From Giardia intestinalis (Eukaryota), in NCBI GenBank assembly GCA_000002435.2, contig CM018790.1: a stretch of 64,000 nt of DNA. One strand, written 5' to 3'. Numbering within the stretch: the stretch's first letter is position 1; every line of letters begins with the position of its first letter. The position numbers and the translations under genes were made by a program. The notes below the pieces were generated by a model, which was not told the origin of the DNA, made no database searches, and worked only from the letters and a program-made list of their open reading frames with translations. Of the stretch, positions 6,715-26,724 are shown piece after piece.

Positions 6715-6728
6715 ATGTAGACTTAGGT

Positions 6729-7070: not shown

Positions 7071-8417
7071 CTACGCATCGCTGACCCGTGCCTTGTGCTT
7101 CCTCTGCCTCCCCTCCTGGTCCTTCTGCGACCTCCCCCCGACCCCAGCGCGACGGCCGGAACTCACCTGCGTGCTCGCCATGCAGAGGAACAGGCGCGCT
7201 CCATCCACGGCCGTGAAGACGCATCGCAAGGCCCCTTCTGTCTCGTACAGGGCGCAGAACATGTGTGTCGAAGGGGCCAGCTCGCATGTGCCGATAGAGC
7301 GGGGGCCGTCTGTGCCGCTCTCCACGGGCATCCTGTGGAAGTGGAGAAGGCTTCCCCTGCAGAAGGCCAGACAGAGGCTTCCCGGGGCAGCCGAGGATGG
7401 GGACAGAGAGCAGATGCGGAACGACTCAGACTCCGGGGGCAGGCTCTGGGCCCCGAAGTCATCGAGTTCTATCGTGGAGAACGAGAGATGCGACAGCAGG
7501 CCGGAGACGACCAGGAGGACCGGCAGATCGGAGCGCTCGCCGGTCTCGGAAATGGCTGACACGGCGACGACAGCCGAGGTGCCACACATGCAGACGGCCC
7601 CGACCTGCGCCTCTGCAAGCCCGGGACCCTCTTTGCAGCGGTACAAGAGATGCTCCTCGGGGCTCGAGACAACAACCCGGGACATGTAGAACTCCGTGCC
7701 GGTCTGAGTGAACCACTCGAATCCCCGTAGCGCTGGGTCCAGAGTTGCGGGCTCCTGGAAGCAGACGCAGCACAGAACGACTTCTGCATCAGTCGTGGAG
7801 GCCAGGACATAGAGGAGGGAGGAGGCCGGATCGTAGCGCAGAGAGGGGCAGGCAGTGTCAGCGACGGAGACGGGGAGGACAGTTGCCTGGGGACACCCGC
7901 CGCGCAGGCAGAGCAGTAGAAGGCCAGTGCCTTGCGGGTCCTGTGCTGGGAGCCCAAACACAGCGACGAGGACACTTGCGGCCCCGCACCTCTCAGCAGA
8001 GAGGTTTCGGATAGGCCAGGGGATGTCCCGTGCGGGGTAGAGCAGGACTAGGCGATGCGTTCGATGGGAGCCTGCTACGAGCTCGTAGATGGCCGACACA
8101 GAGGCGAGGAAGACCCGCTCATCCAGGGCGCAGACCGCGGTCAGGGGCTCTCCCGGGGCGGCGCGTCCGAGGCTGCAGACACTTCTGCTGCCGCTGATGC
8201 CCTTGGAGGTGATTGCATGGACGATGGGGGCCCAGCTCTGCGTGGTTAGCGCCACGACAGCGTCCCCGCCGCAGACTCGCGCAACCACCGCAGCAATGAC
8301 CGGGGCGTCAAGCTCGGCCCTCCACTCGCACAGGGGGGATCCGGGGGCGTGGGCAGCGATATCCCCAGAAGAGACACCCGCGCGCTCCAGGGCGCTCATT
8401 TTAAGACTGAGGTCCAT
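7071..8417 (-). CDS. Hypothetical protein encoded in a GC-rich island (448 aa)
   Basis: This is the longest ORF in the ~64% GC block 6715..8900, with ATG at 8417. At this GC a chance 448-codon ORF is very unlikely, at roughly 1e-5. The composition is A/V/S/L/G-rich and protein-like, whereas the overlapping plus-strand ORFs (6802..7689, 8089..8859) are R/P/S/C-rich and look like shadows. No recognisable domain. Strand choice is uncertain. Confidence 0.4.
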   Translation of the reverse strand: MDLSLKMSALERAGVSSGDIAAHAPGSPLCEWRAELDAPVIAAVVARVCGGDAVVALTTQSWAPIVHAITSKGISGSRSVCSLGRAAPGEPLTAVCALDERVFLASVSAIYELVAGSHRTHRLVLLYPARDIPWPIRNLSAERCGAASVLVAVFGLPAQDPQGTGLLLLCLRGGCPQATVLPVSVADTACPSLRYDPASSLLYVLASTTDAEVVLCCVCFQEPATLDPALRGFEWFTQTGTEFYMSRVVVSSPEEHLLYRCKEGPGLAEAQVGAVCMCGTSAVVAVSAISETGERSDLPVLLVVSGLLSHLSFSTIELDDFGAQSLPPESESFRICSLSPSSAAPGSLCLAFCRGSLLHFHRMPVESGTDGPRSIGTCELAPSTHMFCALYETEGALRCVFTAVDGARLFLCMASTQVSSGRRAGVGGRSQKDQEGRQRKHKARVSDA

Positions 8418-9963: not shown

Positions 9964-10841
9964 ATGCACGCTGCTTCGTCTGGATCTGCAACAATAGCTT
10001 TCAGTGCCCCGCAGTTCACCCCCAAGGAGCTCCACGAGGGGCTGGATGACGTGCTGGCCAAAGACCCCACAAGCACAATCTACTCTCTCGAAGCTATCTG
10101 GGCCTCGCTGTAAAGGTCATTCCACTAGGTTACCTGGACAAGAACAGTGCAGACGCCATCAGGACAAGGTTGACCACCCTCCCCGACCTCTCCCATCCGG
10201 GGGTCCTCAGGTACCACCAGGTGATTGAAGACGAGGGCCTCATCTACGTCGTCACGGACTGCCAAGACAAGACCCTCGAGCGCCCCCTCGCCGAGCACAA
10301 ACGAAGGAAGATCCCCGTCCCTATCACTATGATCCTCTCTGTCATGAAACAGATCGCCGCCGCCCTCGCCTACCTCCACAGCGTCAATGGGGCAAACACG
10401 AGAGGCCTCGTCCACTGCGACCTCAGGCCTGCCAGCATTCTTATCAACGCAGACGGAGAGCGCTTCATCATCGCCGACTTCGGCCTCTGTAAGGACGCCC
10501 TGTGGAGTGGGAACATTCTCATAGGAATAATGGCATACGTTGCCCCCGAGGTGCTCCTCCACAACGAGCCCAGCCCCGCCTCCGACGTGTGGAGCCTCGG
10601 GGTCATCCTCTACGAGCTTACTACTCTGAGGAGACTGGACTTCCTGAAAGGCAAGGAGCCGGCAGAGGTCTTCGTCGATGGGTGGAGGCCGGACCTGAGC
10701 GGTGTCACTGATGGCTTCATGCAGAATGTTCTGGAGAGGATCTTTGTACTAGAGCCAGAGAGGAGACCGACAGCCAGGGAGCTGCACGAGACGCTCACCA
10801 CATTCGACATCCCAGTTGGTGAGCTGGGGGTCAGTGCGTGA
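9964..10841 (+). CDS. NEK-like protein kinase with degenerate motifs and an apparent -1 frameshift near 10050..10112 (possible pseudogene or sequence error)
   Basis: ATG at 9964 in the context aaaataataaaaccaggATG opens 49 codons (MHAASSG...IYSLEAIWASL*) in frame 1. The kinase body is in frame 0 from 10050 and includes the track ORF 10170..10841, which starts at TTG. Motifs seen: LAVKVI (beta3 Lys), HCDLRPASIL (catalytic loop with K>R and N>S), ADFGLC (DFG), VAPEV, DVWSLGVILYEL. Confidence 0.55.
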
Positions 10842-11165
10842 TGCTGAGGTACAAGTGCGGATCCTTGAAGATTGCTTTGAATGGCGCTAACGCCAGGATC
10901 GCGCTTCTGGAAGAGGATGTTAAGATTAAATCCACTAGATCGACGCACTTGAAGACCAAAGTAAGGAGCATCTGGCCATGATTAAGGCACTGGAGAATAG
11001 GCTTGCACAGCTCAACATCAGAATAGCTACGACTGAGTCTCTGACCAGCCTCTTTTTGCTGCCCAGGCTGATGCGTGCCGCGCATACGAATAGCACGGAA
11101 ACCGTCTGGATGCTGCTTGAAGAAAGACTCGGCATCGACTAGTGCGACGAGCAGGGGCACGTTGA

Positions 11166-12118
11166 TCCCGTCGAGTTGCTTGTTGGGGAGGAGAGGGGCC
11201 TCCAGGACAAGAATGGCTGGACTACCTGATGATCGCCACAGAGGAGGGCCACACAGAAGCTGCCTCCCTTCTGGTCCCATATGAGAAGGACCTAATCGAT
11301 GGCGAAGGCAAGACGGCCTTGGTGATTGCGGCAGAAGCAGAACATGGAACTGTGGTGGAGGCCATCGACCCAACCGATGAGAACGGCGTCACGGCGCTCA
11401 TGCGGGCTGTTAATAGAAACGACGTGGAGGCTGTAAAAGCACTCTTACCCATCCAGAGGGGGAGGAAAACATACAAAGAGGTCATAGCAAGCAGATGGTA
11501 CATGCGCAAAGGAATAGCTCTGATGATGGCTGCGGCAAGTGGACACGCAGAACTGGTAGAACTGCTAGCAGAGCACGAAAACGGAGAGAAAGTAGGCGGT
11601 TGGACCGCTCCCGTATTCGCGGCACGGTGCAATCGTTCCAATGACCCCCTGGTGGACTATCCCAGGCGCGTTGAGCTTTTGATGGAGTATGAGAGCAATA
11701 TCTCAGAGTAGACGGAGCTCATGTATGCAGCAGCACGAGGGCACGAAGGGAGTGTAGAGCTGCTCAAGCAAGAAACTTGTATGAAGAATAACGAGCATCA
11801 GACTGCCCTCACGTGGACGGTGTGCAATGATCATCCAGAGTGCGTCAGGATCCTACTGAAGGACGAAGGCGGCATGCAAGCGACCAAGGGGGGACCGCCC
11901 TTATGAACGCAGCGTATAGCAACACCGTGGAGTGTGCAAGACTTCTTAAGGAAAACGAGAAAGATCTGAAGACAACCTGCAGCTGCCATGGTTACTCGCC
12001 CGGTACCACTGCCCTCAGTATCGCTAAGAAGAAGGATCACAAAGAGATAGTAGACATCCTCCCAAACGAGATCTACTCTGCTTCATCAAGGTCGGCTTGC
12101 CAGCTCCTGTCCGAGTAA
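11166..12118 (+). pseudogene. Ankyrin-repeat (21.1-like) gene disrupted by an in-frame TAG and a +1 frameshift; further degenerate ankyrin-like frames extend upstream to ~10950
   Basis: ORF pieces 11229..11711 (TALMRAVNRNDVEAVKALL...; IALMMAAASGHAELVELL) and 11721..11906 are in the same frame and are separated only by TAG at 11709..11711 (...NISE*TELMYAAARGHEGSVELL). A +1 shift occurs at the G6 run 11888..11893, continuing into ORF 11840..12118 (GGTALMNAAYSNTVECARLL...). An additional stop- and shift-interrupted ankyrin-like frame lies at 11075..11165. Confidence 0.55.
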
Positions 12119-12960
12119 ACCCGTCCAGAGTCCGAAGCTCGGATGCCGCCCACTCTGGAGAAGAGCCTTGTGCATCCCGCCTGGGAGCCGTTGGGTGCTC
12201 CACTATGCGCTCCGGGGCGTCCCTTCCTCTGGCTGGCTTGGGTCAACCATCGTCTGGCATCTAGTGAGCACCTGCTGTCCCGGGCCTTGCGTCGGTCACA
12301 GCGATCTAGTCTCGAGAGCAATTGACTCTGGCCATGTACTCCGGAGTAGCTTTGTGGTGCTGATGCTCTACGACGGAGATTGCACGCCACGACCCCGGGT
12401 GCCTACCCCGTTCCTCGGGTGCCTCCTTGTCTCCTCGTGGATTGTGCCGTCGGTCCCGAGCATGATCAGAGGGTGCGCTCCCCGTACGCCTCTATCTTTG
12501 AGTCATAGTACGCGTTCGTGGATGCCGGCGGAGTACTCCCATGCGTTGTGTCGGGGAAGAGGCCCATCTCTCTGCTCACGGACCGCAGAAGTGCTCCGTC
12601 ACCCAGCACGAGACCGTGTCGACGCTCACCCTGTGCAGTGCGTCTGGCTCAGTGACGTGTGGGCTGGTCCATCCTCACACCGCACACTTGGGGGTGATGC
12701 TTCGGTCTGTCGAGGCGTCGTCCAAAGCATCACGAGCGATCAAGACCGGTTCACCGAGGCCGTCTCTCTACAACCAGCACCCGTCTATTCGAGGGTGTCA
12801 GGTACTGCCAGCTGCTGTGGCAGACACCCGGCAGGTGGTCCAAGTCACCACTCTCCGGTGCGGGCAGGATCAGTCCGCCTCTGTCAGCCAAGCACTCCAG
12901 GGGCCCCATCTCTTGTCGAGGAATTCATATGGGTCACGTGTGGGTCCATCTTGACAAGCG
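12082..12960 (+). repeat. Dispersed GC-rich repeat R, copy 1 (paralog of 23530..24290); apparently non-coding
   Basis: Direct alignment with copy 2 starts at cttcatc[a/g]aggtcggcttgccagctcctgtccgagtaaa. It is about 90-95% identical over ~700 bp, with a 213-bp 100%-identical core at 12316..12528. Only low-complexity P/S/R-rich ORFs are present (12168..12974). The right boundary is approximate. Confidence 0.7.
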
Positions 12961-13333
12961 GGGCGAGTGATTAGTGCCATCACTAGCTTCGGTCCTCCGT
13001 TGCCCCCTCTATCGCCTCGGGGGAGGAGGCATAAATCTTCCTCGTCAGAAGTAGACGGCATCCGACCTTCGGATTTCGGATTCTGGGTCTCAGCTGATGA
13101 ACAAGCGAGAGACTGCCAGCCTAGTGTGGCAGTGGATTGCACGAGGGGATTTACTCAGGGCTCATTTGAGACTATAGACTAAACAAAAGGCAGTACAGTT
13201 TCTTGAAGAAAACTATGGTTATAGGCCAAAAGGCAGACAGGCCAAGGCTACATTATATTAACATCTTGGGTCAGTACTGGGGGTTCTAGGATCCTAGAGG
13301 ATTAGAGGTCAGAATAAATACTTTAAAAAACAC

Positions 13334-16300
13334 ATGTCCAATACTAGTGCTGTTCTTTCTCAAATGTCCCCTCCTACTGGAGTATCTACGGCAGCACAAT
13401 TTTCCCTTGAGGGTCAGGAGTATCTGGCGGTGGTGCGTGTATCTGTGCTGCACATTTATAAGGTAAAAGATGATAGAATACAGTTCATTATCTCACAAAG
13501 CTTCGCAGAACGAATTTTGCAAGTGTTTCCCCGTATCTTCATTGACGAGCTTTCAGGAATGGAGAAACTCCAGCTTTTACTCTGCTTTGATTCCCACAAA
13601 GCTGTCCTGTACGCCCTAACTGGCCTTCGTCTGTCTCAGCTTATGATCTACGACTTTACTGTTACTGCAGAAGAAGCATTAGCCCATGAGCAGGCGTCTT
13701 ATGCGCTGTATGATAACTCTATTCTAGTCTGTATCTGTGGCACAATTCGTACTTATATTGGACTTGCCCAGCTTGATACAGGCTCCATCATCCTAATACC
13801 TTTCGTTGGTGAGAAGATTATTGATGTGCAGTGCCTTTCTCGCTCTTCTACTAACGGCCCTCAGCTGGGTATTCTAACTAGCTTTCCTGTCCCTGCACAA
13901 AGGTGGGCGCGTAACGCTCGTGGAGCGCATCTTCACGTCTATACCATAGAGTATAACGGTGCCGGATTGTCTTCTGAAAAGTCATCTCAGAGAGATGCGT
14001 TTACGCTGGCCCTGCAGCATAAGGTCTCCAACCTTCCCTCAGATAGCTATAGCCTTACGGCTCTTGAGGATCCGCTTAATCTATTTTTAGTCCATTCCAC
14101 ACGAGTTTTCGTATTAGTTAATCCAACTGAAAGGACTTTTCAACCGCTACACTTTCGTTTCTCCTTCCTTCCAGAGGAACAGACGTGCAGTAGTGCATAT
14201 ATAAAAAGCGCCATATCACAGTGTGCATCATTGTCAGGGTCTCATCTTTCTCCGTTTGCTGAGAAGTTTACTGCTTCTTCAGATTTGAAGCTTGTGAGCA
14301 ACAAGCTATTATCTCTACATAACGGCATACTTACAACAGAGAAAACACAATTTAATTCTGTTCACCGGGCTACTCTACCCATTGCACCCACACTCATGCC
14401 TGCTCACCCTATCAAAGGAGGTCTGGAGTACCCTTATTACGGATTCAGCATAGACCGACCAGATGAGCCTGTTTGTTTATCACAAATTAGCAACGTTTTG
14501 GGTGGGTTTCCTGCGTTAGATCTACACTTATATATGGAAGCATGCGGTTCTACGCATATCGATAATCTACTCCGATTTGAAAATCGAACTAGAAGTAGCA
14601 TTACTCCAGGAGAGTACATCAACATGTCAGCGTTCGGCAAGTATCCGTCGAATTTGGAGTACCTTGGCCCTCGGTCAGATGTGTTTAATTACCTACAGAT
14701 TCCCCCGTTAAATGGTACGCGTGTGTGTTATTTGAAAAGCTCTACTACCATGTTGAAAGGTTGGCACAACATCTTAGTGATGGATAGCAGGGGTTTATCA
14801 TTTATTATGCGATTTCATAGCGATAACGGGGCGATTACTAAGCAGAGCTTGGAGTTGTATCCTGTTTGTCTTTGTGATCGCAACGCAGCGATAACGACAG
14901 GTTCTCCTGCGATGCTGTTTCCGCCTTCCGTGATCTTGGCTCTTTCAGCAGCCTCTACAAAGAATACTCCACTGGGATACGAACTGGAACGCAGATATCG
15001 CGCAGTAGCGGAACTCCCAGCTGACGTTAGGCCTAGAGAAGATAAGGTACAATGCGACGTCCAACATCCATATCATGATCTTTTTTCTGTACGGGTATTC
15101 GTTGGCTCTCTTGTTGAGGACTCTCTCTTGTGTATGATAACGATGTCAACTGCAACACCAAAGCAAGGATACTACTATGATTACAGGCCGTGCCCTCTAC
15201 CAGGTGAGACGAACCATGCAAATATAACTAAGCTTGCACAAGCCTTGTATGCCTCGTCCTCCATAACTGAGAGCACCGCGCCGCATTTATCTTCTCTTTC
15301 ATCTCCGTTAGTTACTTCCGAGTCCAGTGCGGAGACAAGAAAAATCCAGATCTTTGGTCAGAGCTTCAATGTAGAAAACTATCATAGAATTAGGATCTTT
15401 GCTAATGCAAAACTGCTCAAGCCTTTTTCGGGAAGCATACTCCGTCTTATCGAGCGTCAAACTACTCATCTTCCAACATATGACACTGTGATGCACGGGC
15501 TTGTCTTTCCATACGCAATTCTCCCCTCCATGTCTTCTGTTAAGGATGCTTCCGCCAAGCCCGTCGGTTTGGGTGAGCAGAAGGATGCAAATGCTCGACC
15601 TCGCCTTCATCTGCTTCACGAGGCCGGTGCTATTTCCATGGTTAGCTCTTACGCGACATCTACGACTTCTTCGCAGTTTAAGTATGCTCAGAAGATGAAC
15701 AGACTAGACGACAGAGCAACATCTCTCTCAGATAGCTACGTCTGCGCTTTTTACCATATGAATCCAGATGCAAACAACCATCGCTCATTGAGATCTATGT
15801 TTTCTGGGGCTACGTCTTTCAATATTCTCGTCACATCGCGGGATGGAACAAACGTAATGTCCATTACCAAAGACACCGATCTTTTCAGCTCTACGTCGAC
15901 GAAGAAAGAACTGTCAATACACCCAGTGAGCACGCCAGCAGTACTTCATCAACCAACCATTCTAGCATTTACCCTCGCATGCGGCGTTTCTGTTCAAGTG
16001 TGCCCTCTAGAAATGGTGCTCTTTGCATACGATGGCCTGGAGAAAGTCTCGGTATCAATTGGCGAGCTAGCGTCGTCTTGTAAACCGCAGATGCTTCAGG
16101 ATTGCTCCGAACATTTGGCGATCTTACATGCCGAAAGCGACTATGTGAGATTTCTGTTTTTGACTACTTCTACTGCAATCTTCTGTGTACCCTTGCCTAC
16201 TTCTAAGGCAGATCTTGTGGGATATCGTACGCCTGTTAGCGAAACTGCGTTGTGCATTTATACCATGACCTCAATAGAGAACTTTTGCTCATCGGCCTTC

Positions 16301-19300
16301 TTGTCTGCAAAGAACTCTGAACCATTATTGGCATACTTGTCTTTGTCAAGAGTAGAGGTACTTGCTGCAGACTATCTCAGCTCTGAGGAAGCATCACGTG
16401 TTTCGAAGGATGTGTTTATGAAGAGAATTCACACCTTAGTTTCGACGATTAATGACGACCATACATCATTAGGTTGCTTATTTGCTGTGACTTCTAACGC
16501 AAGGATAATCTTTATTCTCCTACTAGAACACAAAACAACACAATCCCTCCTATATTTACCTCTCTGGGTTTGGCAGGTATATGAGCAGAACCTTCTCGAA
16601 AAGGATCACAAGAGCAAGATCTCTTTCCGCACTAACACACACATTCTCTCACTACTGCCGTACATATGCACTTATGGGGTTTTCGAATGCTGTACGTCAG
16701 CGGAATCAACAAAAGATATAACTGGAAACATACTGATGGGGCGCCAGGTTAGTCCTCAACCTTGTCAATCGTCAGACATGCTTCTCCCATACAACACAGC
16801 GTACATGACTGCTCTTTTCGAGACACAGCGAGACACTATAGCCTCTGAAATGACTCCAGATAGATCTCTCGCTAAGCATACAAACCACTTGAGCACTGAG
16901 ATTAACACTAGGCGCATTTCTAGCATTTATGTGTCATCAACACCCATCATTTCTCAAGTCTGTACCCCTGTCCCTTCACAATTTGATTCTACAGAGGAGA
17001 ACATGAAGAGTACTGAAATAAGCACAAACATTACGCTATTCATTGCGTACTTTGGTGGGCATACGTCTGTACATCGGATTGGGCCACAATTAGATGCCCA
17101 GCATAAATTGTGTGCTACGCTGGGAGACAGTATAGCTCTTACCACTCAACCGATATCAACCAAATCCGTGGCGACAAGATCCATTGATTCCTCTTGCAGC
17201 TATGAGTACTCAGACTTGTGGTCAGACGTTGTCTCCCTTTCTTTTCCTACTAAAGAAAAGGTAGTCACAAAGTCCGTGGCCCTTAGAATTGGTCGTCCGT
17301 TTCGGCCGATCTACCTTGTTGATGCTGGGCCTCAGCAAGAAAGCCTCTCCTTGCCATTAATATTCATTGGCACACCACGCCCCACAACGGGTGCGACACC
17401 TGTGTCTTGTATTGCAGTCCCCAATCTGTTCGGGTCATATAGCTTGCACATCCTGGGTCGTACACAGTCTTATCTTCTTTTGAACAAACGGTATTCAATA
17501 CCCATCCAACATCCAGTGAGGCAGATGCTTCCTATTTGCTACATTCCTGGTTGTTCTTTCCCAGCGTGTCTAAATCTCATTGATTCAAGTCTCCCCATAT
17601 CAATGATGACACAGGGAACATCTCCACATGTCATGAGCAACTTTACAAACATCCCACACGTCTATCTACACAGAAATGGAATAGAGCTAGGCAGCATAGA
17701 AAACATTTACTTTGGAACGCACTTGCTTTACAAGGATGTTTGTGAGAAAGAGTACAAGGACACGGCCAAGGGCTGCTGCTTCCTGAATCGCCGCCTGACG
17801 CACTCAAGAAAAAATATAATCTACAATCTGCTTTACTTAGCATCTTTTGGAAATAATACACAAATGCCCGTACGCACCATACTGAATCTTCCACCAAGCC
17901 TGAAGGGAAGTAAGATGTGTTACAACGTGGAGAGCGATGCATTTGCAGTGGTGTCACACATCGAGCGCTATGAGGTCCGAAATCCCCGATCGATCGCTAA
18001 GGATGAAGTTGCTGGGATAAAGGTTTCAGAAGAGATCAAGGCGCTAAGGGACTACCATCGCATAGGTGACATGACAGAGGAGGATGCCCTCCTGAGTGCA
18101 CAAAAGGATGGAGATCAGGCGCAGCTCGAAGCCTATACGCGCTTCAAAGAGGAAGGACTCGTAAGAGCAAAAGAGATCATGCTCGCCAGTCCGCCAACTT
18201 ATAACTCCTTCATGAAAGTCAAGTTCGAAGCCCTTCTACTTATTGTTAACGATCCATCAATGAGCAAGTATCGTGTATGCGACTATTACTTGTATGATTT
18301 AAAACGATACGAGACGTCTACAACACTTGTGTCTGACACAATAGATTCCCAGTTCCCTCGCCGCTTTGGTAGTGCCTGGAGGCACGAGGGTGGAATATCC
18401 CGTGATGACTTCGGCTGCATAAACAGGCGTAACTACCATAACTCACAAACTAGTGAGCAAACCAGTTCCAAGCCTCGTGAAATCCTTAGGTCAGGAACAA
18501 AAGAGCTTATTCTGCTGGGCACTGGATACCTACTTGGGCCAGATGAAAAGTGCTATGGAACATGCAAGATATTAGCGCTTGAAAAGACTGACAAAAACGA
18601 TGACATCAAGGCTAACAAGTGGAATTTGGGGGCATGGTCGTCTTTCTTTGCATTCAGGCTAATTACACAAGAGGAATTCCAAAATGTAATAACAACTGTG
18701 CGCTCATTCCCTGCAGCGCGAGTTATTCTTATCGGAGAAAACAAGCGCATATGCGCATATCATTTAGAGGATAGCTGCCGTCTCACCTGCTGCAGCGTTT
18801 TTGAGCGTTGCGGTTACATATCAAATATCTCACGGTTTAACGAGTTTATTTCTGTCTCTGATCTTATGTTGCGCAACGGTCTGTACGTGTTTAGAAGCCG
18901 CGGAAGCAGAAACAATCCTATCAGCTACTCATCCAACGATCTTCCTATATATGCGAGTGACTTCTTGGTCTCCGGGGTGACCAAGGAGATGAATGTTATT
19001 GGAGTTAGTTTGCATCGGATAGTCTGTCTCTTATCATATCCGTACACAAAAACCAGCCAGAGGCTTGTTTCTCAGTTAGCAGTGCAAAGCAGCTGTAAGA
19101 TACCATGGACTTGTGTGTCGATCCTCCAAGCTGCGGGATGGATCAACGCCCCTGAGGTAGAGAGTAATGACAGGCCGACTAAGAGCAGTCAACTGACTAG
19201 TAATGCCAACTGTATTCTTGCGTGTGCCGAGGGCGCCGTTTTGGTGGCAGTACCTGTGCCAGCAGAAGTAGATCAGTTCATAGAGATGATGGGGTGCTTT

Positions 19301-19507
19301 AATCTATTTGATATAGGTCCACACTGCATTGCAAGAAAAAGAAGAAGTTTTGATAGGAGGCTTGTATATGATTCTGCCAGGCTAATTATATTACAAACGC
19401 TTGACAATACTTCCAGAGATTACTCTGGCCTCGGCCCGAAAGCGGCCAACATAAGGGGCTTTAATAACCTGATTTGGAGACTCATGAGCGATGCTGTATG
19501 CTTGTGA
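13334..19507 (+). CDS. Large hypothetical protein (2057 aa)
   Basis: Uninterrupted 6.2-kb ORF with ATG in an A-rich initiator context (ctttaaaaaacacATG). No domain recognised with confidence. Convergent with the next gene, with 27 bp between stops. Confidence 0.75.
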   Translation: MSNTSAVLSQMSPPTGVSTAAQFSLEGQEYLAVVRVSVLHIYKVKDDRIQFIISQSFAERILQVFPRIFIDELSGMEKLQLLLCFDSHKAVLYALTGLRLSQLMIYDFTVTAEEALAHEQASYALYDNSILVCICGTIRTYIGLAQLDTGSIILIPFVGEKIIDVQCLSRSSTNGPQLGILTSFPVPAQRWARNARGAHLHVYTIEYNGAGLSSEKSSQRDAFTLALQHKVSNLPSDSYSLTALEDPLNLFLVHSTRVFVLVNPTERTFQPLHFRFSFLPEEQTCSSAYIKSAISQCASLSGSHLSPFAEKFTASSDLKLVSNKLLSLHNGILTTEKTQFNSVHRATLPIAPTLMPAHPIKGGLEYPYYGFSIDRPDEPVCLSQISNVLGGFPALDLHLYMEACGSTHIDNLLRFENRTRSSITPGEYINMSAFGKYPSNLEYLGPRSDVFNYLQIPPLNGTRVCYLKSSTTMLKGWHNILVMDSRGLSFIMRFHSDNGAITKQSLELYPVCLCDRNAAITTGSPAMLFPPSVILALSAASTKNTPLGYELERRYRAVAELPADVRPREDKVQCDVQHPYHDLFSVRVFVGSLVEDSLLCMITMSTATPKQGYYYDYRPCPLPGETNHANITKLAQALYASSSITESTAPHLSSLSSPLVTSESSAETRKIQIFGQSFNVENYHRIRIFANAKLLKPFSGSILRLIERQTTHLPTYDTVMHGLVFPYAILPSMSSVKDASAKPVGLGEQKDANARPRLHLLHEAGAISMVSSYATSTTSSQFKYAQKMNRLDDRATSLSDSYVCAFYHMNPDANNHRSLRSMFSGATSFNILVTSRDGTNVMSITKDTDLFSSTSTKKELSIHPVSTPAVLHQPTILAFTLACGVSVQVCPLEMVLFAYDGLEKVSVSIGELASSCKPQMLQDCSEHLAILHAESDYVRFLFLTTSTAIFCVPLPTSKADLVGYRTPVSETALCIYTMTSIENFCSSAFLSAKNSEPLLAYLSLSRVEVLAADYLSSEEASRVSKDVFMKRIHTLVSTINDDHTSLGCLFAVTSNARIIFILLLEHKTTQSLLYLPLWVWQVYEQNLLEKDHKSKISFRTNTHILSLLPYICTYGVFECCTSAESTKDITGNILMGRQVSPQPCQSSDMLLPYNTAYMTALFETQRDTIASEMTPDRSLAKHTNHLSTEINTRRISSIYVSSTPIISQVCTPVPSQFDSTEENMKSTEISTNITLFIAYFGGHTSVHRIGPQLDAQHKLCATLGDSIALTTQPISTKSVATRSIDSSCSYEYSDLWSDVVSLSFPTKEKVVTKSVALRIGRPFRPIYLVDAGPQQESLSLPLIFIGTPRPTTGATPVSCIAVPNLFGSYSLHILGRTQSYLLLNKRYSIPIQHPVRQMLPICYIPGCSFPACLNLIDSSLPISMMTQGTSPHVMSNFTNIPHVYLHRNGIELGSIENIYFGTHLLYKDVCEKEYKDTAKGCCFLNRRLTHSRKNIIYNLLYLASFGNNTQMPVRTILNLPPSLKGSKMCYNVESDAFAVVSHIERYEVRNPRSIAKDEVAGIKVSEEIKALRDYHRIGDMTEEDALLSAQKDGDQAQLEAYTRFKEEGLVRAKEIMLASPPTYNSFMKVKFEALLLIVNDPSMSKYRVCDYYLYDLKRYETSTTLVSDTIDSQFPRRFGSAWRHEGGISRDDFGCINRRNYHNSQTSEQTSSKPREILRSGTKELILLGTGYLLGPDEKCYGTCKILALEKTDKNDDIKANKWNLGAWSSFFAFRLITQEEFQNVITTVRSFPAARVILIGENKRICAYHLEDSCRLTCCSVFERCGYISNISRFNEFISVSDLMLRNGLYVFRSRGSRNNPISYSSNDLPIYASDFLVSGVTKEMNVIGVSLHRIVCLLSYPYTKTSQRLVSQLAVQSSCKIPWTCVSILQAAGWINAPEVESNDRPTKSSQLTSNANCILACAEGAVLVAVPVPAEVDQFIEMMGCFNLFDIGPHCIARKRRSFDRRLVYDSARLIILQTLDNTSRDYSGLGPKAANIRGFNNLIWRLMSDAVCL

Positions 19508-19534
19508 GGGTATTTAAGTGAACATACTGTGTTT

Positions 19535-21379
19535 CTAATTTTTCTTTAACGTTGGAGGCAAGGGAATGTCGCGCAAATCCTTTCTAGTACACTCTAGCGA
19601 GAAGTTGTACGGAGTAGTTGTACTGGCACCCGCAAGTTTCACTTGCTTACGAGTATCAATAAAGAGAGAGTCGTAGCTCTGATCAGAAATAACATCACTT
19701 AATCCCTTCTCGCTTGATGTTTCATTGCTGGATAGAGCATGATAATTCAAAGACTTAAATCCAGATCCAGAGTCATTGCGTGGCGTTGATGAGTGTATGG
19801 GCGTCACCAGAAAGCGTCTACCGTGTGTACTTGTGCTATTTTCCGGCAAAATGACCACTTTCGGTGTCGCAGCAAGAACACTATTCTTGAGGATTGGTGA
19901 TTGAATTGTTTCTCGATTAACTCGTACACTCCGGTAACCTATATCTCCAGGAACATTGAGCGCAAAAGGCACAAGTGGCGACATGAGGGAGGCCTTCAGA
20001 GGAGAAAGTGCATTAGTCTGGGAGAGATCCTGATCTTCCCACCCAGCTTGCATTCCGTCTTTGCAATAAAAAATGAATGCATCCTGAGGCATAAAATCAT
20101 CCGTCTGGGCACCAACTGGCAGGACCTGGTAGGCCTCGACAGAGCTTCCCGCCACGGAGGAGAATAGAGTGCCAGTACAATCATTTTCACCATCTCCAAT
20201 GATGGGTTGGTTACTAACTACTATCCTTATCATACGACGGCCATGGAATAATCGTTTTTTCAATTGAATCTCTGCTGGAACATTCATGGCTCGGCCTCTA
20301 AGATACTTTGGCATATATAGACTAGTTGGGGTCAGGGCAGTGAATGCACGGTGATGAGCCCAGCGATGACTTGTTGTAGGACTAACTAAGTATGGATCGT
20401 GTACGTGTCCAGCCTTTGGGGTGCATAAGTTTGTGGTGTTTAGTGTGGTAACGGGCTCTGCATGTCTCATAAGCTCTGAAAACTCATAAGCAGAATGAGC
20501 ATCAAGCAGGGTAGGATCCCCATAAGCTGAAAGCATAAGGGAGTCCAGAACAGGATCCTGAAACGCTGGGGTTGCAGTGCTGGTGGAAATTGCAACATCA
20601 ACGGATGGTGAAGTCACTTGAAAAAGCGTAACACCATCGTGCTCTGAAAACTGTTGGTCCGTAACCGGGCCCGAGTTATCTGTGGCCGAGGTTCCATCCG
20701 CAGAAACATCCAAGAGAAGTTCGTCATAGTTTGAAATATGCATTGCGTCGCTAATTGGCCTAAATATATAGGTCTTAGCTGGAAACTGCTGAATTGTATG
20801 AGAAGAATTAGTCCCGGAAAGCACAGCAAAGGAGGCTGACGTGCCGCTGATATCTATAAACCGTTGAGCAATCGCATACGTGTACTCGTGAACGGTTCCA
20901 GTTAGTGGACCGCGACCCAACGAGTCGACGGGGTTTAATGTCGATCCGGTGGAGAGTCGCCAGGGCACCTCCTGGGTGTTGACATGTAAAGCAGATTCAT
21001 TGTATGGGGCGATAGACATAAAGTGCCGTAGAATAGATCCTTGATAACTATCGATAACGAGTGTACTAAGACTAGAAGCAACACTACTAATAGAGTGTGT
21101 GGAAGCGAGCTGGATGGATCCAGCCTGTTGTGAGGATGGATGGGTGGAAGCAGAAGACTCTGCAAGACATACTGATGAGGGTGATGCCGATGCATTGTTA
21201 TTACAATTTGCATCAGTGCTGCAGACAATTCCATGCTCGATACGCGTTTCATTACCAGGCCTAGTTGGTGTGGGAATTAGATACCTTACTGGAGCGTTCA
21301 GCCTCTGTGCATCCCACTGCATGATCTGCTCTTTGTTGAGTAGAAAGAAATCGAGCCTTGTGCAGGGGGTCTGGTGCAT
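19535..21379 (-). CDS. Hypothetical Ser/Thr-rich protein (~614 aa)
   Basis: The track ORF 19535..21409 starts at TTG. The first ATG is 10 codons in, at 21379, in the context gtcaaaaaaATG (MHQTPCTRLDFF...). No recognisable domain. Confidence 0.65.
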   Translation of the reverse strand: MHQTPCTRLDFFLLNKEQIMQWDAQRLNAPVRYLIPTPTRPGNETRIEHGIVCSTDANCNNNASASPSSVCLAESSASTHPSSQQAGSIQLASTHSISSVASSLSTLVIDSYQGSILRHFMSIAPYNESALHVNTQEVPWRLSTGSTLNPVDSLGRGPLTGTVHEYTYAIAQRFIDISGTSASFAVLSGTNSSHTIQQFPAKTYIFRPISDAMHISNYDELLLDVSADGTSATDNSGPVTDQQFSEHDGVTLFQVTSPSVDVAISTSTATPAFQDPVLDSLMLSAYGDPTLLDAHSAYEFSELMRHAEPVTTLNTTNLCTPKAGHVHDPYLVSPTTSHRWAHHRAFTALTPTSLYMPKYLRGRAMNVPAEIQLKKRLFHGRRMIRIVVSNQPIIGDGENDCTGTLFSSVAGSSVEAYQVLPVGAQTDDFMPQDAFIFYCKDGMQAGWEDQDLSQTNALSPLKASLMSPLVPFALNVPGDIGYRSVRVNRETIQSPILKNSVLAATPKVVILPENSTSTHGRRFLVTPIHSSTPRNDSGSGFKSLNYHALSSNETSSEKGLSDVISDQSYDSLFIDTRKQVKLAGASTTTPYNFSLECTRKDLRDIPLPPTLKKN

Positions 21380-21509
21380 TTTTTTGACTTCGATTGGTTC
21401 GCCATACAAAATGGTTTGTAACCAGTTTGGTTAGTCATATTAGTATCTTCTACTCCTGTAGCTTACATGTTGTTCAAAAGCTGTCAATTCTCGTATTCAT
21501 GGCCAAAAA

Positions 21510-22508
21510 ATGAACCGAAAACGCTCCAGCGTAAGCGACCTTGTTGTCGCTATTGCTAAAATGCTCAGTGGCCGCACAGAGCAGGCATCCTTCAAGGAGG
21601 CGGATGCAGAAGCCCTTAAAGTGAGCATATCTCAACTTAAGTCCCAGGTAACATCACCCAATCCACAGCTCCAACGTGCTCATTACAACGAGTTTACCCG
21701 GGTTATAATGACTGATAACACGTTAGTAGATATTGTTGGCGGCCTTGCTTGGCTAGATTTTGATTCTCGCAAGTCCCTTATTTCATTGGTTGCTGGTCTT
21801 GCCCACCGTGCATCCAGTGGGGATCCTGCAGATGATGCTGACCCCGCTCTTCTCGTGAATTATATTCTTAGCCATCAAGACCTCCTTGACGTCCTTCTAG
21901 ATGGCTATAAACTTCCACAGCCCTTTCACGTGACCACAATCCTGTGTGAGTATATTAAAGTTTACTCCATAGCCGAGACCATCCTACTATTCTGTGCTAA
22001 AGAACAGTTCCAGCGAATCTTCTCTGCAATGAGTAGCCCGAATTTTGATGTTTCTTCTGACGCTTCTGTGGTGCTGAAGGATTTATTAACAAAGCATGAA
22101 CAGCTTACGGCTACATTTCTTGACCAAAATCCTCAGTTCTTTACTTGGTTCTGTACCCTGCTGCATTCCTCTAATTACGCCACGCGCCGCTTCAGTTTAA
22201 ATTTGCTGAGCACATTGCTTCTTAACCGCGCAAACTTCAATGCGATGTCACGCTTTGTGGAATCTGATGAGAATTTGAAGTTGATCATGAGACTTCTCAA
22301 GGATGACAGCGCTGTAATTAGGTTTGAAGCATTTCACGTGTTTAAGGTATTTGTGGCCAATCCAAAGAAAACAGAGCCCGTTCACAAGATCCTGAAGCGG
22401 AATAAGGACAAGCTTATAGAGCACCTTCTGAGCTTCACTACTGAGACTAATTCAAGTGACTTTGAGGAAGAAAAGGGCTTCATAGTTGATAGCATCTCAG
22501 AGCTGTGA
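21510..22508 (+). CDS. Mo25/CAB39 family protein (calcium-binding protein 39-like scaffold)
   Basis: ATG in the context ggccaaaaaaATG. The C-terminus closely matches Mo25: FDVSSDASVVLKDLLTKHEQL...ENLKLIMRLLKDDSAVIRFEAFHVFKVFVANPKKTEPVHKILKRNKDKLIEHLLSF...EEEKGFIVDSISEL. Confidence 0.9.
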   Translation: MNRKRSSVSDLVVAIAKMLSGRTEQASFKEADAEALKVSISQLKSQVTSPNPQLQRAHYNEFTRVIMTDNTLVDIVGGLAWLDFDSRKSLISLVAGLAHRASSGDPADDADPALLVNYILSHQDLLDVLLDGYKLPQPFHVTTILCEYIKVYSIAETILLFCAKEQFQRIFSAMSSPNFDVSSDASVVLKDLLTKHEQLTATFLDQNPQFFTWFCTLLHSSNYATRRFSLNLLSTLLLNRANFNAMSRFVESDENLKLIMRLLKDDSAVIRFEAFHVFKVFVANPKKTEPVHKILKRNKDKLIEHLLSFTTETNSSDFEEEKGFIVDSISEL

Positions 22509-22538
22509 CTGATACTTTATAAAGCGAAGGTTATACTC

Positions 22539-23546
22539 TCAAATTACTTTACTGCTCATTGACACCCCACTCTGCTTTCCTACTTCGTTGCTATCTGAGT
22601 CGCATTCGTCTGTACGGTCTCCAATATCCGGGTTCTGAACCATGAGCTCCTTATCTTCGCTGTTATCGTTCTTACTCTTCTTTCTCCTGTCCCTAAACGT
22701 GTATATAATTAATGCAACCGTCAAGACAAATAGCTGTACAGTCGAAGAAGTCATTGTTAAGTAGGTCATCCAATTAGCCTTAGATATGATAGCAAAAACG
22801 AACATACATAAGACGACAATGAACTGGATACTTGAAAGTAAGACAGACATGCTTCCTGGTGATTTGACTTTACATGTGTGGTAAATTTGGGGACTGAACT
22901 GTGCCAGGTTAAAGAAAAGGGATGTGATGGACAGTGCCAAAGTAAATCCACGGACCCATGGGGTACACATACCATAGAAGATCACAATTACAGTAGCTGC
23001 TGCGATGATGGATAGCATAACACCTAAAAATAGGAAGAAAGCAAGTACATGACACTTAGCTCTTTGAACATCTCCTTGATCACTGGTAGGCTCGGCTTCA
23101 GATGAGGTTGCATGATTGGTCTTGACCTTTGACACATATAATAAACGGATAGTGAGTGCATACCACCATATGAACCCCAATAGGAAGGCAGAGCTCTGCA
23201 GAAAGGGGATCATGTTTGAATAGCATAAGCCTGGGTTTTGAGGACAGGCGAAAATTTGAGGAAGGGTGGTGATATAGAATACACTAGTGGAAAATAAGAG
23301 AGAGTATGAAGCAACGTGTAAAAAGATGAACGAAATACTGTAAACGGATCTTGTTCGGTACATCTTCACCAGCTGAGGAATATATGAGATAACGATTAAA
23401 GCTAGGAGAATGCTGTTGAATATCGTAACAGGAAGGCTTATATTAGCTAGATAAGGTGTGTAGTCGTATGGATCTATAAACGTGCCGTCTTCAATATAGC
23501 AAGGGTTACGTATCATTTTAATAAAGCTCAATTTGCTCTTCTTCAT
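22539..23546 (-). CDS. PQ-loop repeat multipass membrane protein (cystinosin/LCT-family-like)
   Basis: 335 aa with about 7 predicted TM helices and two PQ motifs in the expected positions (VISYIPQLVKMYRTRSV and AQFSPQIYHTCKVKS). The ATG (MKKSK) at 23546 overlaps the left end of repeat R copy 2. Confidence 0.6.
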   Translation of the reverse strand: MKKSKLSFIKMIRNPCYIEDGTFIDPYDYTPYLANISLPVTIFNSILLALIVISYIPQLVKMYRTRSVYSISFIFLHVASYSLLFSTSVFYITTLPQIFACPQNPGLCYSNMIPFLQSSAFLLGFIWWYALTIRLLYVSKVKTNHATSSEAEPTSDQGDVQRAKCHVLAFFLFLGVMLSIIAAATVIVIFYGMCTPWVRGFTLALSITSLFFNLAQFSPQIYHTCKVKSPGSMSVLLSSIQFIVVLCMFVFAIISKANWMTYLTMTSSTVQLFVLTVALIIYTFRDRRKKSKNDNSEDKELMVQNPDIGDRTDECDSDSNEVGKQSGVSMSSKVI

Positions 23547-24290
23547 CGAGGTCGGCTTGCCAGCTCCTGTCCGAGTAAATCCGTCCAGGATCCGAAGCTC
23601 GGATGCCGTCCACTCTGGAGAAGAGCCTTGTGCCTCCTCGCCCGGGAGCCGTTGGGTGCCCCACTATGCGCTCCGGGACGTCCCTCCTCTCTGGCCCGTC
23701 GGGGTCAACCATCGTCTGGCATCTAGTGAGCACCCGTTGTCCCGGACCTGCCGTCGGTCACAGCAGTCTGGCCTCAGAGCAATTGACTCTGGCCATGTAC
23801 TCCGGAGTAGCTTTGTGGTGCTGATGCTCTACGACGGAGATTGCACGCCACGACCCCGGGTGCCTACCCCGTTCCTCGGGTGCCTCCTTGTCTCCTCGTG
23901 GATTGTGCCGTCGGTCCCGAGCATGATCAGAGGGTGCGCTCCCCGTACGCCTCTATCTTTGAGTCATAGTACGCGTTCGTGGATGCCGGGGGACAGCTCC
24001 TATGCGCTGGTATTGGGGGAGAAGTATGGTCCTCTGCTCATGGATCGCAGAGGTGCTCTTGCAGGCGGTCCGTCACCCAGCACGAGATCATGTCGGCGCA
24101 TCATTCTATGCAGTGCGTCTGGCTCAGCGACGTGTGGGCTGGTCCATCCTCACACCGCACACTTGGGGGTGATGCTTCGGTCTGTCGAGGCGTCGGTCCA
24201 GGGTCATCGACTGCTGGGACCCTCCACCATCAGGGTGGTAGACCAAGGAGAGGCGCCACTGATAGACGACGCAGATGGGTAAGTAAGCTA
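23530..24290 (+). repeat. Dispersed GC-rich repeat R, copy 2 (paralog of 12082..12960)
   Basis: Same orientation as copy 1. The 100%-identical core is at 23777..23989. It lies between the PQ-loop gene start and the 3' end of VSP 24541..26724. ORF 23533..24282 is low-complexity and is judged spurious. Confidence 0.7.
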
Positions 24291-24521
24291 AATCCTGGGC
24301 TGAGCGACGCACGTACACAGTCTGAGCACACGCCCATGAAACGGTAGAGAAATGTACCGAGCCCTGGATATATCACTGGAGAGGACTCTCTCATCATGTT
24401 ATCCATGATCAACAGTTGTCTCCGGACGGCCAGGACTTGAACGAGAATTTACTCGTGAGACTTCTGGACGCACTGCAGGTGGACCTATCAACATATCTAC
24501 GCAAGCTACGCACAGTAACGC

Positions 24522-24528
24522 GTTTACT
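24522..24528 (-). promoter_or_regulatory. AGTRAAY polyadenylation signal (AGTAAAC) of VSP 24541..26724
   Basis: Minus-strand sequence after the CRGKA stop: tagatgtacttagatAGTAAACgcg. Confidence 0.55.
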
Positions 24529-24540
24529 ATCTAAGTACAT

Positions 24541-26724
24541 CTACGCCTTCCCCCTGCAGATGAACCACCAGCAGAGGAACCCTACGAGACCAGCCACAAC
24601 GACGATGACAGCCACGGAGATCCCCGCGATAGCGCCCGCGCTGAGACCGCTCTTGTTGGTGTTCTGTATGAGGTAGCAGAGGACGGAGCCAGTACTAGAC
24701 GATGGAGGAGCGCAGTTTAGGCAACCCTTAATACCAGTGACCCCATTGCTATCACTTTCGCAGGATGTGCACGCACCTTCTCCTGATGCGGTCTTGTAGT
24801 ATCCTGTAGCACACGCCTTACATGTTGTAGCTGCTCCATTACATGTTTCGCAGCTGGAATCACACTTTGTGCATGCACTTGCACTCTTTACATATCCGTC
24901 CAGACACGTAGTACAGTCGGTACTGCTGGTACATTCCTTACACCCTTCAGAACAAACTGTAAGGGTACCTGAATCCAACTTGTAACCATCTGCAGCTTTT
25001 TGACACGTACCACCATTTGGTGCACTAATGCAAACCGTCTTACCGGGATACTTGACTGTTTCATAGCACCCTCCGTTCATCTTAAAGTAGTTATCGGCAC
25101 ACGTTCCACAAACACCATTCTGAATAGGCGAGTCGTTGCACGTAGGTGTGGCGCGGCTAGCCTTTGGTGCACAGACGCCATTTTGAGGATACTCTGTCGT
25201 TGTGGCGCACTCAGAGCAGTAGCTAGCACCATCGATAGTGAGCCCACACGTTTTGCAGGCGCCGCTGCCTTGGCCCGTTGTGCAGCCTTCTCCGCACGTG
25301 CCCTTAGTACCGTCGTCCCCGTACCTAAGTGCTTTTCCAGTGGGACACTCGGTGCAGTCGCTGGCAGTGCCTGCGCTGCATGTCTTGCAGCTTTCGTGGC
25401 ACGGAGAGCATGCGTCGCCGTTTTTATAGAATCCGTCGCTGCATGCTTGGCACTGCCCTTGCCCATCGCAAGTCTTGCAGTTAGCCGCAGTGCACTCTTT
25501 ACAGATTTTCTTTGCTCCTTCGGTAGCTCCATAGTAGTTTCCAATCTTAGCGCAGCTGTCTATGCACTGGCTTGTCGGCGTGAGATATGTGCTACTATCA
25601 CAGTCTGTGCAGACCTCGTTCTCCTTTCCTTCGTTGCTGCACGCCTTGCATCCGGGGGTCTTGCAGTTGCTTACCGCCTCGCACGTAGTTTTGTCGGCAC
25701 TAGGCTTGTATCCATTCGTGCAAGCGATGCACGTAATAGTGGGCGCTATCCTTCCTTGGTCTGTCGGAGTACACGCCGCGCACTTATCGACGCCCCCATT
25801 CGCAGCGTCACCGCATAAAACACACCTGTTTCCGCTCTGGGAATTTTCTACCGGAAAAGAGTCGGGTGAGCATGCGCTTTGCTCTACACATGTCGTTGTG
25901 CCATCAGCGGCCGTTTTGAGATAGTTATTGCCACCGCACTTCGTGCAAGCAGGCTTGGCTTGATCGGGACTTGGCGGCGTGCACTTTTCGCAACTCGCCA
26001 CCCCAGTGGTTACATCTCCGCATGCAAAGCATCTCTTGCCATTGTCAGAGTCCTCCTTCGAAAACTCAGTGTCAGGCGTGCAGCCCTCCCCACAAGTACC
26101 AGTCGTTGCAAGGTACTTATCCTGGCCGCACCTGGTGCACTTGGCGTCTCCGCCGGCAGCGTCTGTCAGCGCCGCCCCGTCGCATCTCTCGCAGTGCTGC
26201 ACCCCCCTGTACGTTTTGCCGCTGTCGGTGAACCCGGTCGTGTCCGAGCACGATACCACAGAGTCCTTGGTATTCGCCCTCAGCGGGTTGAGGAAGTACC
26301 CCGGGGCCGCCTCGGTGCACTTTCCCTCAGAGGCTTGCGTGCACATGCTCTGTCCTGGTGCAGTGTCCTTTGAATAACAGCCGTCCTTGTACATGAAGGA
26401 GGCGCCTCCGCACTGCGTGCACTTCCCCTGGCCCTTTGCCGGGCAGAGCGTTTTGCTTTGCCCCTCAGCGTTGACGTCTGCACACTGGCCGTTCACGGGG
26501 GCGTAGTTTGCTCCGTTGCACTCGGAGCAGTATTGTTCTTGGCCGATGGTGACGCCACACGTTTTACAGCTCCCATCGCTGCCTGATCCGTCTGCCTGAC
26601 ACGCAGCCCGTGCCAGCTGAAGGATGACGATCGCGAGCAAAAATCTGCCGAACATTGGGCCGCCGACCTGCTGGGTGGCGCCGGCCTTCCCCGGGAGAGG
26701 CGGGGTCGTCTGATGTGCCGACAT
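24541..26724 (-). CDS. Variant-specific surface protein (VSP), full length
   Basis: 727 aa, rich in CXXC motifs. It ends with a TM helix and ...FICRGKA. AGTAAAC lies 13 nt after the stop. The signal peptide MFGRFLLAIVILQLARA begins at the second Met (alternative start 26655). A 23-codon in-frame extension (MSAHQTTPPLPGKAGATQQVGGP) is conserved with the other VSP. Confidence 0.9.
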   Translation of the reverse strand: MSAHQTTPPLPGKAGATQQVGGPMFGRFLLAIVILQLARAACQADGSGSDGSCKTCGVTIGQEQYCSECNGANYAPVNGQCADVNAEGQSKTLCPAKGQGKCTQCGGASFMYKDGCYSKDTAPGQSMCTQASEGKCTEAAPGYFLNPLRANTKDSVVSCSDTTGFTDSGKTYRGVQHCERCDGAALTDAAGGDAKCTRCGQDKYLATTGTCGEGCTPDTEFSKEDSDNGKRCFACGDVTTGVASCEKCTPPSPDQAKPACTKCGGNNYLKTAADGTTTCVEQSACSPDSFPVENSQSGNRCVLCGDAANGGVDKCAACTPTDQGRIAPTITCIACTNGYKPSADKTTCEAVSNCKTPGCKACSNEGKENEVCTDCDSSTYLTPTSQCIDSCAKIGNYYGATEGAKKICKECTAANCKTCDGQGQCQACSDGFYKNGDACSPCHESCKTCSAGTASDCTECPTGKALRYGDDGTKGTCGEGCTTGQGSGACKTCGLTIDGASYCSECATTTEYPQNGVCAPKASRATPTCNDSPIQNGVCGTCADNYFKMNGGCYETVKYPGKTVCISAPNGGTCQKAADGYKLDSGTLTVCSEGCKECTSSTDCTTCLDGYVKSASACTKCDSSCETCNGAATTCKACATGYYKTASGEGACTSCESDSNGVTGIKGCLNCAPPSSSTGSVLCYLIQNTNKSGLSAGAIAGISVAVIVVVAGLVGFLCWWFICRGKA

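Follow-up and report, generated by a model that had tools for sequence, protein, structure and literature searches.

A truncated dispersed repeat in Giardia intestinalis probably lends a false upstream ATG to a neighbouring PQ-loop gene

The DNA analysed here is a 64,000-nucleotide stretch (the window) of Giardia intestinalis WB, assemblage A1. Within it, the gene for a PQ-loop protein, GL50803_15292, has its coding sequence on the minus strand at 22539..23516, comprising 325 aa and a stop codon, and the protein matches Pfam PF04193 in two stretches (E = 4.5e-9; 36.4 bits against a curated cut-off of 22). The gene lies between Mo25 and a VSP gene of 727 aa (24541..26724, minus strand; Pfam PF03302, E = 3.6e-214) with the C-terminus CRGKA, whose stop codon occupies 24541-24543 and whose 3' end faces a repeat, here termed R. 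The 3' flank of this VSP gene (24453..24540, minus strand) carries a conserved CTTAGATAGTAAAC motif, and similar pieces adjoin the 3' ends of other VSP genes; it also contains AGTAAAC at 24528-24522 (minus strand), which fits AGTRAAY, presumably the Giardia poly(A) signal. On its other side, the PQ-loop gene forms the end of a four-gene block (13334-23516: PQ-loop, Mo25, a gene of ~600 aa and one of 2057 aa), the synteny of which is kept across assemblages. Two copies of R bracket this block, the VSP side of which is rearranged in P15 (assemblage E).

The two copies of R in the window are direct repeats, both read here on the plus strand, with a GC content of ~60% compared to ~42% in their flanks. 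Copy 1 (12071..~13163) is a near full-length unit with the left part of an inverted repeat at ~12071-12200 and the right part at ~13018-13163, from which the outermost ~40 nt have been deleted; its inverted-repeat arms at 12124-12154 and 13050-13080 extend to 145 columns at 63%. Its left terminus meets the last fragment of a decayed NEK/ankyrin gene (11840..12118, plus strand; Pfam Ank_2), and the terminus includes an AGTAAAC motif (12114-12120) as well as the stop codon of this fragment (12116-12118). Copy 2 (23531..24200) is a truncated member of the same family, which retains an intact left terminus but lacks the right third, including the right inverted repeat. In-register homology between the copies begins at 12071/23531, and 12076-12724 is 89.5% identical to 23536-24200 over 666 columns, a span that includes a core of ~230 nt (12315..12548, plus strand) that is 97-100% identical to 23776-24009, compared to 84-92% in the sequence flanking it. 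A second repeated piece, segment X (24201..24452, plus strand), directly adjoins R in copy 2, DH copy 2 and the DH locus L013, and is absent next to copy 1; R and segment X taken together are 87% identical over 923 nt between 4980-5894 of L013 and 23536-24452 of the window.

At the boundary between R and the PQ-loop gene, the gene strand reads ...GCCGACCTCG ATG AAG AAG AGC AAA TTG AGC TTT ATT AAA ATG ATA CGT AAC CCT..., and thus offers two in-frame ATGs. The upstream one (ATG1, 23544..23546, minus strand) is borne by the repeat, at positions 14-16 of R copy 2, and is most likely unused. The downstream one (ATG2, 23514..23516, minus strand) is the conserved start codon of GL50803_15292, opening the sequence MIRNPCY..., at which the four lower-identity orthologues and the current RefSeq model begin. 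No stop codon separates the two in WB; hence, the longest ORF (22539..23546, minus strand, 335 aa) opens inside R, and it is identical to the old GL50803_15292 model, XP_001708184.1. The 325-aa form from ATG2 is identical to XP_001708184.2 (current RefSeq) and KAE8302099.1 (GenBank), the RefSeq model having already been revised from 335 to 325 aa. Between the terminus of R, 14 bp upstream of ATG2, and ATG2 itself lies a native, AT-rich, initiator-like segment of 14 nt (TGAGCTTTATTAAA on the gene strand; 23517..23530, minus strand).

Much of what the initial annotation had described at this boundary is borne out. Copy 2 does overlap the start codon of the longest PQ-loop ORF, the CAT at 23544-23546 lying 14-16 nt inside R, although the left edge of R, placed originally at cttcttcatc, is corrected to 23531. 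The same junction is indeed present at copy 1, where no gene starts: cttcatcaaggtcggc is found at 12081-12096, and the same ATG there opens just a 20-codon ORF. R also fills most of the gap to the VSP 3' end, taking up 670 of the 1024 nt between ATG2 and the VSP stop codon, with segment X making up the next ~250 nt. Nor is the overlap a coincidental similarity, ATGAAGAAG being repeat-borne and situated in a conserved terminus, where the triplet equivalent to ATG1 is CAT in WB copy 1, WB copy 2 and L013 and has mutated to CAA in DH copy 2 and to CGC in P15.

A protein search returned five relatives of the PQ-loop protein, and the four of lower identity (84-67%) all begin with MIRNPCY, that is, at ATG2: P0002, from G. 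lamblia P15 (84%), P0003 (75%), P0004 (69%), which has one extra Met relative to this start, and P0005 (67%). No R was detected near the PQ-loop orthologues on the contigs of P15 and P0003 (L005/L006), and no MKKSK was found upstream of them either; orthologues lacking R, the comparison to which the initial annotation had pointed, therefore do not share the MKKSK start, and their upstream DNA is AT-rich right up to the ATG. In assemblage A2, R is found at the same position as in WB, both in the DH genome (L010) and in metagenome contigs (L001-L003, L008 and L009). Here, the sequence is TTG AAA CAG AGC AAA TCG AGC CTT ATT AAA ATG, with no ATG1, and TTGAAACAG is read at the site of ATG1 in L001-L003, L008 and L010. 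Gene calls in A2, from DH and the metagenome alike, are 408-420 aa long and run further into R.

Comparison of WB with DH shows that the coding sequence from ATG2 is identical at 961 of 978 positions (17/978 differences; 98.3%), whereas the 30-nt extension between ATG1 and ATG2 is identical at only 25/30 (5/30 differences; Fisher p = 3e-4 against the coding sequence), and because the extension diverges more than the coding sequence, in the manner of non-coding DNA, constraint appears to begin at ATG2. The AT content of the preceding 14 nt is 0.79 for ATG2 and 0.29 for ATG1. The segment before ATG2, which lies outside R, is identical in A2 at 12 of its 14 positions. Transcription in Giardia starts within AT-rich initiators at or just before the ATG, and 5' untranslated regions (UTRs) are mostly < 20 nt (PMC3792122, PMC1885649); the commonest initiator 11-mers identified by TSS-seq include AAATTAAAATG and AATTTAAAATG (PMC3792122), and the initiator at ATG2, TTATTAAAATG, is of the same type as the published AAATTAAAATG-type 11-mers. 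The supplementary files of the TSS-seq study hold no entry for GL50803_15292. Judged from these comparisons, ATG2 is the true start and the protein would begin with MIRNPCY, while ATG1 is almost certainly not a start codon and appears to be a WB-specific, in-frame accident carried by the repeat. The original suggestion that R had supplied the start is thus not upheld, given that P15 and P0003-P0005 start with MIRNPCY and that A2 has R but reads TTG AAA CAG. The case resembles other longest-ORF N-terminal extensions in Giardia, in which an upstream, in-frame ATG lacking an initiator is picked by ORF length, except that here the false ATG comes from a repeat terminus and not from ordinary intergenic DNA.

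The wider distribution of R was examined by using a chance ORF through copy 1 as a query against protein clusters and by fetching and comparing five loci. Matches to R comprised 34 chance-ORF protein clusters, including nine named DH hypothetical proteins on several contigs, together with many Giardia contigs in ENA. R is present at at least nine DH loci with unrelated flanks, and copies were mapped in L010-L015. Similarity among these copies is 65-87%, and their extent varies; several end near ~12720, which matches the end of copy 2 (12720/24200). A complete unit of ~1160 bp was found in L011 (4628-5787), its ends forming an inverted repeat of 162 columns at 69%, so full-length units measure ~1.16 kb and carry imperfect terminal inverted repeats of ~160 bp. 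L011 and L012 have just the R unit in common, from the same inverted-repeat base. VSP genes lie within a few kb of R at copy 2 in the window and in L011, L013 and L014, and R copies are often found beside VSP or NEK/ankyrin genes.

The left terminal motif of R can be written as AT(C/T)T(A/G)CTCTG(C/T)TTC..C.A.GTC...TTGCCAGCT.CTGTCCG.GT.A..CC, and assemblages A and E both conserve it; the ends of R also carry inward-pointing AGTRAAY poly(A)-like signals. Three sites show the terminus ATYTRCTCTG abutting unrelated DNA: WB copy 1, where it follows the decayed NEK/ankyrin gene, WB copy 2, where it precedes the PQ-loop initiator, and P15. L015 starts with a shorter ATTTAC form. In P15 the terminus is inverted, as expected of a terminal inverted repeat, and its site is collinear with the right end of copy 1. 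At this collinear place, the P15 orthologue of copy 1 has diverged (65% over 249 nt), and the insertion of copy 1 is therefore older than the A/E split. Copy 1 is thus present in A1 and A2 and, diverged, in P15. Copy 2 was seen only in A1 and A2 and is absent from P15 and L005/L006, neither of which provides a clean empty site: the DNA upstream of the PQ-loop gene is rearranged in P15, with the VSP gene in inverted orientation, and the assemblage-B-like contigs stop 308 bp upstream. Inspection of alignments at L011 and WB copy 1 revealed no evident target-site duplication; these ends have decayed, and copy 1 has lost its right end.

Searches for a coding or RNA function of R gave no signal. 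Pfam identified no domain in its long chance ORFs, in the six frames of copy 1 with stops masked or in the 34 R-ORF matches, and ORFs within the GC-rich tract adjoining R in L014 were likewise without a Pfam match. A regular-expression search near R for the reverse-transcriptase motifs YxDD and QGxxxSP returned matches only in unrelated genes. Rfam gave 0 matches over the whole window and ARAGORN found no tRNA in it. Folding of R as RNA showed no excess stability (z-scores of +0.28 and -1.43), and in RNAalifold the covariation term contributed -3.9 of -118 kcal/mol, with 8/125 pairs compensatory. A degenerate 26-mer of the R core had 0 matches in GTDB prokaryote genomes and 0 in JGI metagenomes, and its absence from these scans, which added no further loci, gives no sign of a foreign origin for R.

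Two candidate identities for R could be set aside. A decayed VSP gene was rejected as the source of R, which has no CXXC-rich frame, no Pfam VSP match and no similarity to VSP coding sequence. Girep-1 to -5 are, like R, non-coding Giardia repeats that have been discussed together with VSP genes, and they are transcribed; they consist, however, of 222-228-nt units that are repeated in tandem and resemble VSP genes (PMC2817412), whereas R is dispersed and neither tandem nor VSP-like, and this identity was accordingly rejected on anatomy.

GilD (Arkhipova & Morrison 2001), which is probably the same family as Genie 2 (Burke et al. 2002), bears a closer comparison, and all Genie 2 copies were reportedly described by Burke et al. 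2002 as carrying inverted repeats of up to 172 bp. The inverted repeats of R, at 162 columns in L011, are similar to this length. Moreover, R is dispersed and chromosome-internal, and its copies are all decayed, with differing internal deletions and extents, and lie beside VSP genes in gene-poor stretches; GilD is a dead non-LTR family, disrupted by microhomology-mediated deletions and located in gene-poor regions beside VSP genes (PMC2861651). The likeness is incomplete in that no reverse-transcriptase or endonuclease remnant was seen in or beside the R copies examined, although short deleted derivatives could lack them. Set against GilD as the literature describes it, R may be a dead GilD/Genie-2 remnant, for which we would put the chances at roughly even.

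Alternatively, R could represent an undescribed, TIR-bearing, MITE-like non-autonomous Giardia family and not a GilD/Genie-2 remnant, which we consider unlikely. As in MITEs, R is non-coding with discrete ends and long terminal inverted repeats, and occurs in multiple dispersed copies, often near the 5' ends of genes. At ~1.16 kb, however, it is large for a MITE, its copies are old and 65-87% alike with no homogeneous burst, no target-site duplication was seen, and its inverted repeats are only ~69% matched. To our knowledge, the Giardia genome is reported to contain three non-LTR retrotransposon families only and no transposase-related sequence, and we know of no transposase-bearing partner in Giardia.

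Several observations bear on the history of the copies. The near-identity of the core within flanks of 84-92% implies, as far as sequence comparison can tell, that the two WB copies have recently undergone gene conversion with each other, and a deletion affects the core region of DH copy 2. L013 is a mosaic that combines the left context of copy 1 with the right context of copy 2, and 10190-12724 of the window (2.5 kb, comprising the NEK/ankyrin pseudogene and R) is duplicated in it at 87%. These patterns indicate that R copies recombine ectopically with their paralogues and exchange sequence with them by gene conversion; annotation and genome dynamics are the two areas in which R has a demonstrable effect.

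Other explanations of the locus give R a more active part or deny that it is an element. One holds that R donated a functional start codon and/or promoter, so that the WB protein would begin with MKKSKLSFIK and transcription would start inside R. ATG1 is repeat-borne, in frame and followed by no intervening stop, R-less orthologues are without ATG1, so that an ancestral coincidence does not account for it, and transcription in Giardia is promiscuous, some genes having long 5' UTRs (PMC1885649, PMC3792122). A2, however, has R without ATG1, the extension diverges ~10-fold faster than the coding sequence, ATG1, in the GC-rich R terminus, is not preceded by an AT-rich initiator while a canonical initiator stands at ATG2, and the extension has been dropped in the current RefSeq model, all of which makes such a donation very improbable. 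We are almost as sceptical of the proposal that R functions as an RNA gene or as a source of regulatory hairpins, giving rise, for example, to dsRNA and siRNAs that act on neighbouring VSP genes, in which case its position beside the VSP gene would be functional. Copy 2, having no right inverted repeat, cannot form a hairpin, R is unlike VSP coding sequence, and the missing Rfam match, the z-scores and the small covariation term all speak against an RNA product, even though the ~160-bp inverted repeats of full-length units would fold into a long hairpin if transcribed, R copies often neighbour VSP genes, and both Dicer/Argonaute control of VSP genes and repeat-derived sense and antisense RNAs are known in Giardia (PMC2817412). 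For the unusual conservation of the R core between the WB copies, which might also be cited in favour of an RNA function, gene conversion is the better explanation, given that DH copy 2 carries a deletion there.

The remaining explanation concerns the nature of R itself. The direct R repeats bracket the conserved block exactly where synteny with P15 decays, and L013 has 2.5 kb in common with copy 1 as well as R and segment X in common with copy 2, which means that larger blocks were copied along with R; R might on these grounds be no element at all but the shared end of a local segmental duplication, its copies being rearrangement breakpoints that flank the 13334-23516 block. Against this, R-like units are scattered over different contigs, at nine or more other DH loci whose flanks are unrelated, L011 and L012 share the unit alone and from the same inverted-repeat base, the terminal motif borders unrelated DNA in WB copy 1, WB copy 2 and P15 (and, in its shorter form, in L015), and P15 retains an old copy at the copy-1 site only. 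We therefore think it highly doubtful that a segmental duplication accounts for R.

The reading that we favour, and that we hold to be likely, is that copy 2 is an inert, truncated, non-coding repeat, for which GilD/Genie-2 is the probable label, and that it carries the false ATG1 while the gene uses its native initiator and ATG2. Going by the sequence and the published promoter rules, transcription would start in the native AT-rich initiator TTTATTAAA directly before ATG2, ATG1 would lie outside the mRNA, and the protein would begin with MIRNPCY. R would then supply neither the start codon nor the initiator of the PQ-loop gene. From position -14 up to the VSP poly(A) region, the upstream sequence is entirely repeat-derived, consisting of R (23531-24200) and segment X (24201-24452), after which comes the VSP 3' flank, and the 14-nt segment at 23517-23530 is the sole remainder of the promoter that preceded R. 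R would thus have removed or displaced every native base upstream of -14, leaving the assemblage A gene on a minimal, initiator-only promoter. The initial annotation had proposed that the start and promoter of the gene were supplied or replaced by the repeat; the first part fails, with ATG2 and its initiator lying outside R, and the second holds for the native sequence upstream of -14, which has been replaced. In Giardia promoters, the initiator-proximal AT-rich element is the origin of sense transcription, and additional AT-rich sequence mainly modulates strength (PMC1885649); a minimal promoter of this kind would be compatible with normal, possibly weaker, expression of the PQ-loop gene.

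Overall, the locus is an ordinary decayed repeat beside a gene, with an annotation artefact that has already been corrected, and it will not surprise specialists in Giardia genomics. It shows how gene models in Giardia can be inflated by in-frame upstream ATGs that originate in repeat termini, here to 335 aa in the old WB model and, with gene calls running into the same repeat, to 408-420 aa in DH and the metagenome, and how chance ORFs through R come to populate protein databases as 'hypothetical proteins'. Residual interest attaches to the possibility that the R family is of the TIR type, a kind of element that this genome is believed to lack. The locus also illustrates the small promoter need of Giardia genes, with 14 native bases left upstream of ATG2 in assemblage A. 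The conserved four-gene block, next to variable VSP and NEK regions, is delimited by R copies that show gene conversion, which bears on the reshuffling of VSP-rich regions.

Comparing the two copies of the repeat R in the WB genome, we found that a core of about 230 nt (12315-12548 in copy 1, 23776-24009 in copy 2) is 97-100% identical between them; the R sequence flanking this core is 84-92% identical, and copy 2 of the assemblage A2 genome, DH, carries a deletion at the beginning of the core. The WB copies, which lie 11.4 kb apart, thus appear to have undergone gene conversion recently. Directly to the left of copy 1, a NEK kinase/ankyrin gene is present in fragments, as separate kinase and ankyrin ORFs (10170-12118). 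This pseudogene and R together make up a 2.5-kb unit, all of which has a duplicate of 87% identity in DH contig AHGT01000023 (locus L013, 3102-5641). There, the segment next to R is the one that in the window follows copy 2, making L013 a recombinant mosaic.

The poly(A) signal of Giardia is AGTRAAY. An inward-reading AGTAAAC or AGTAAAT motif, which fits this signal, was observed inside the terminal inverted repeats of R, at 12114-12120 in copy 1, at 23574-23580 in copy 2, reverse-complemented at the right end of copy 1 (~13147-13153), and at ~5895 in a further R locus, L015. A degenerate form occurs in the complete R unit L011, in L012 and in the assemblage E genome, P15. The last ankyrin ORF ends in a stop codon (12116-12118) that is overlapped by the left-hand motif of copy 1; R therefore provides that stop codon and, possibly, the poly(A) signal as well.

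Another R locus (L014, DH contig AHGT01000015) contains a tRNA-Ile(GAT) gene at 7777-7850, with several tandem partial tRNA-like copies ahead of it, translated as LAQSVERQSDKLK repeats (region 7300-7900), in a tract of 65-73% GC; the distance to an R copy is about 1.5 kb. A D-arm-like GGCTAACTCAGTCGGTAGAGCA is also found in the region left of R.

Chance ORFs across the GC-rich R have been entered in protein databases as 'hypothetical proteins' (L010, 10001-11263; gene calls at L001 and L008; clusters P0010-P0043), among them DHA2_153228, 150217, 150211, 150205, 151666, 152276, 154554, 151684 and 153417. These entries, together with the DH PQ-loop model DHA2_151630, lengthened to 420 aa, are likely annotation artefacts.

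Two independently assembled metagenome contigs from ENA carrying the PQ-loop orthologue P0003 (L005 and L006), probably of assemblage B, both stop upstream of the PQ-loop gene at exactly 308 bp from its ATG, suggesting that an assembly-breaking repeat begins there in this lineage too.

The VSP adjoining R (24541-26724) and another VSP at a distance of 28 kb (52620-54832) form a mosaic of 80-100% identical blocks, among them 209 nt at 100% (26111-26319 and 54203-54411); a third, inverted VSP 3' end lies at ~6594-6719. At the orthologous place, the VSP is only 247 aa long in DH, compared to 727 aa in WB. The two R copies, in direct orientation (12071-13163 and 23531-24200), enclose a block of four genes (13334-23516) encoding a 2057-aa CPSF_A-like protein, a protein of ~620 aa, Mo25 and the PQ-loop protein. 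A2, E and the P0003 contigs all keep the order of this block, while on the VSP side P15 has an inversion or replacement; R is therefore positioned where conserved DNA meets variable DNA.
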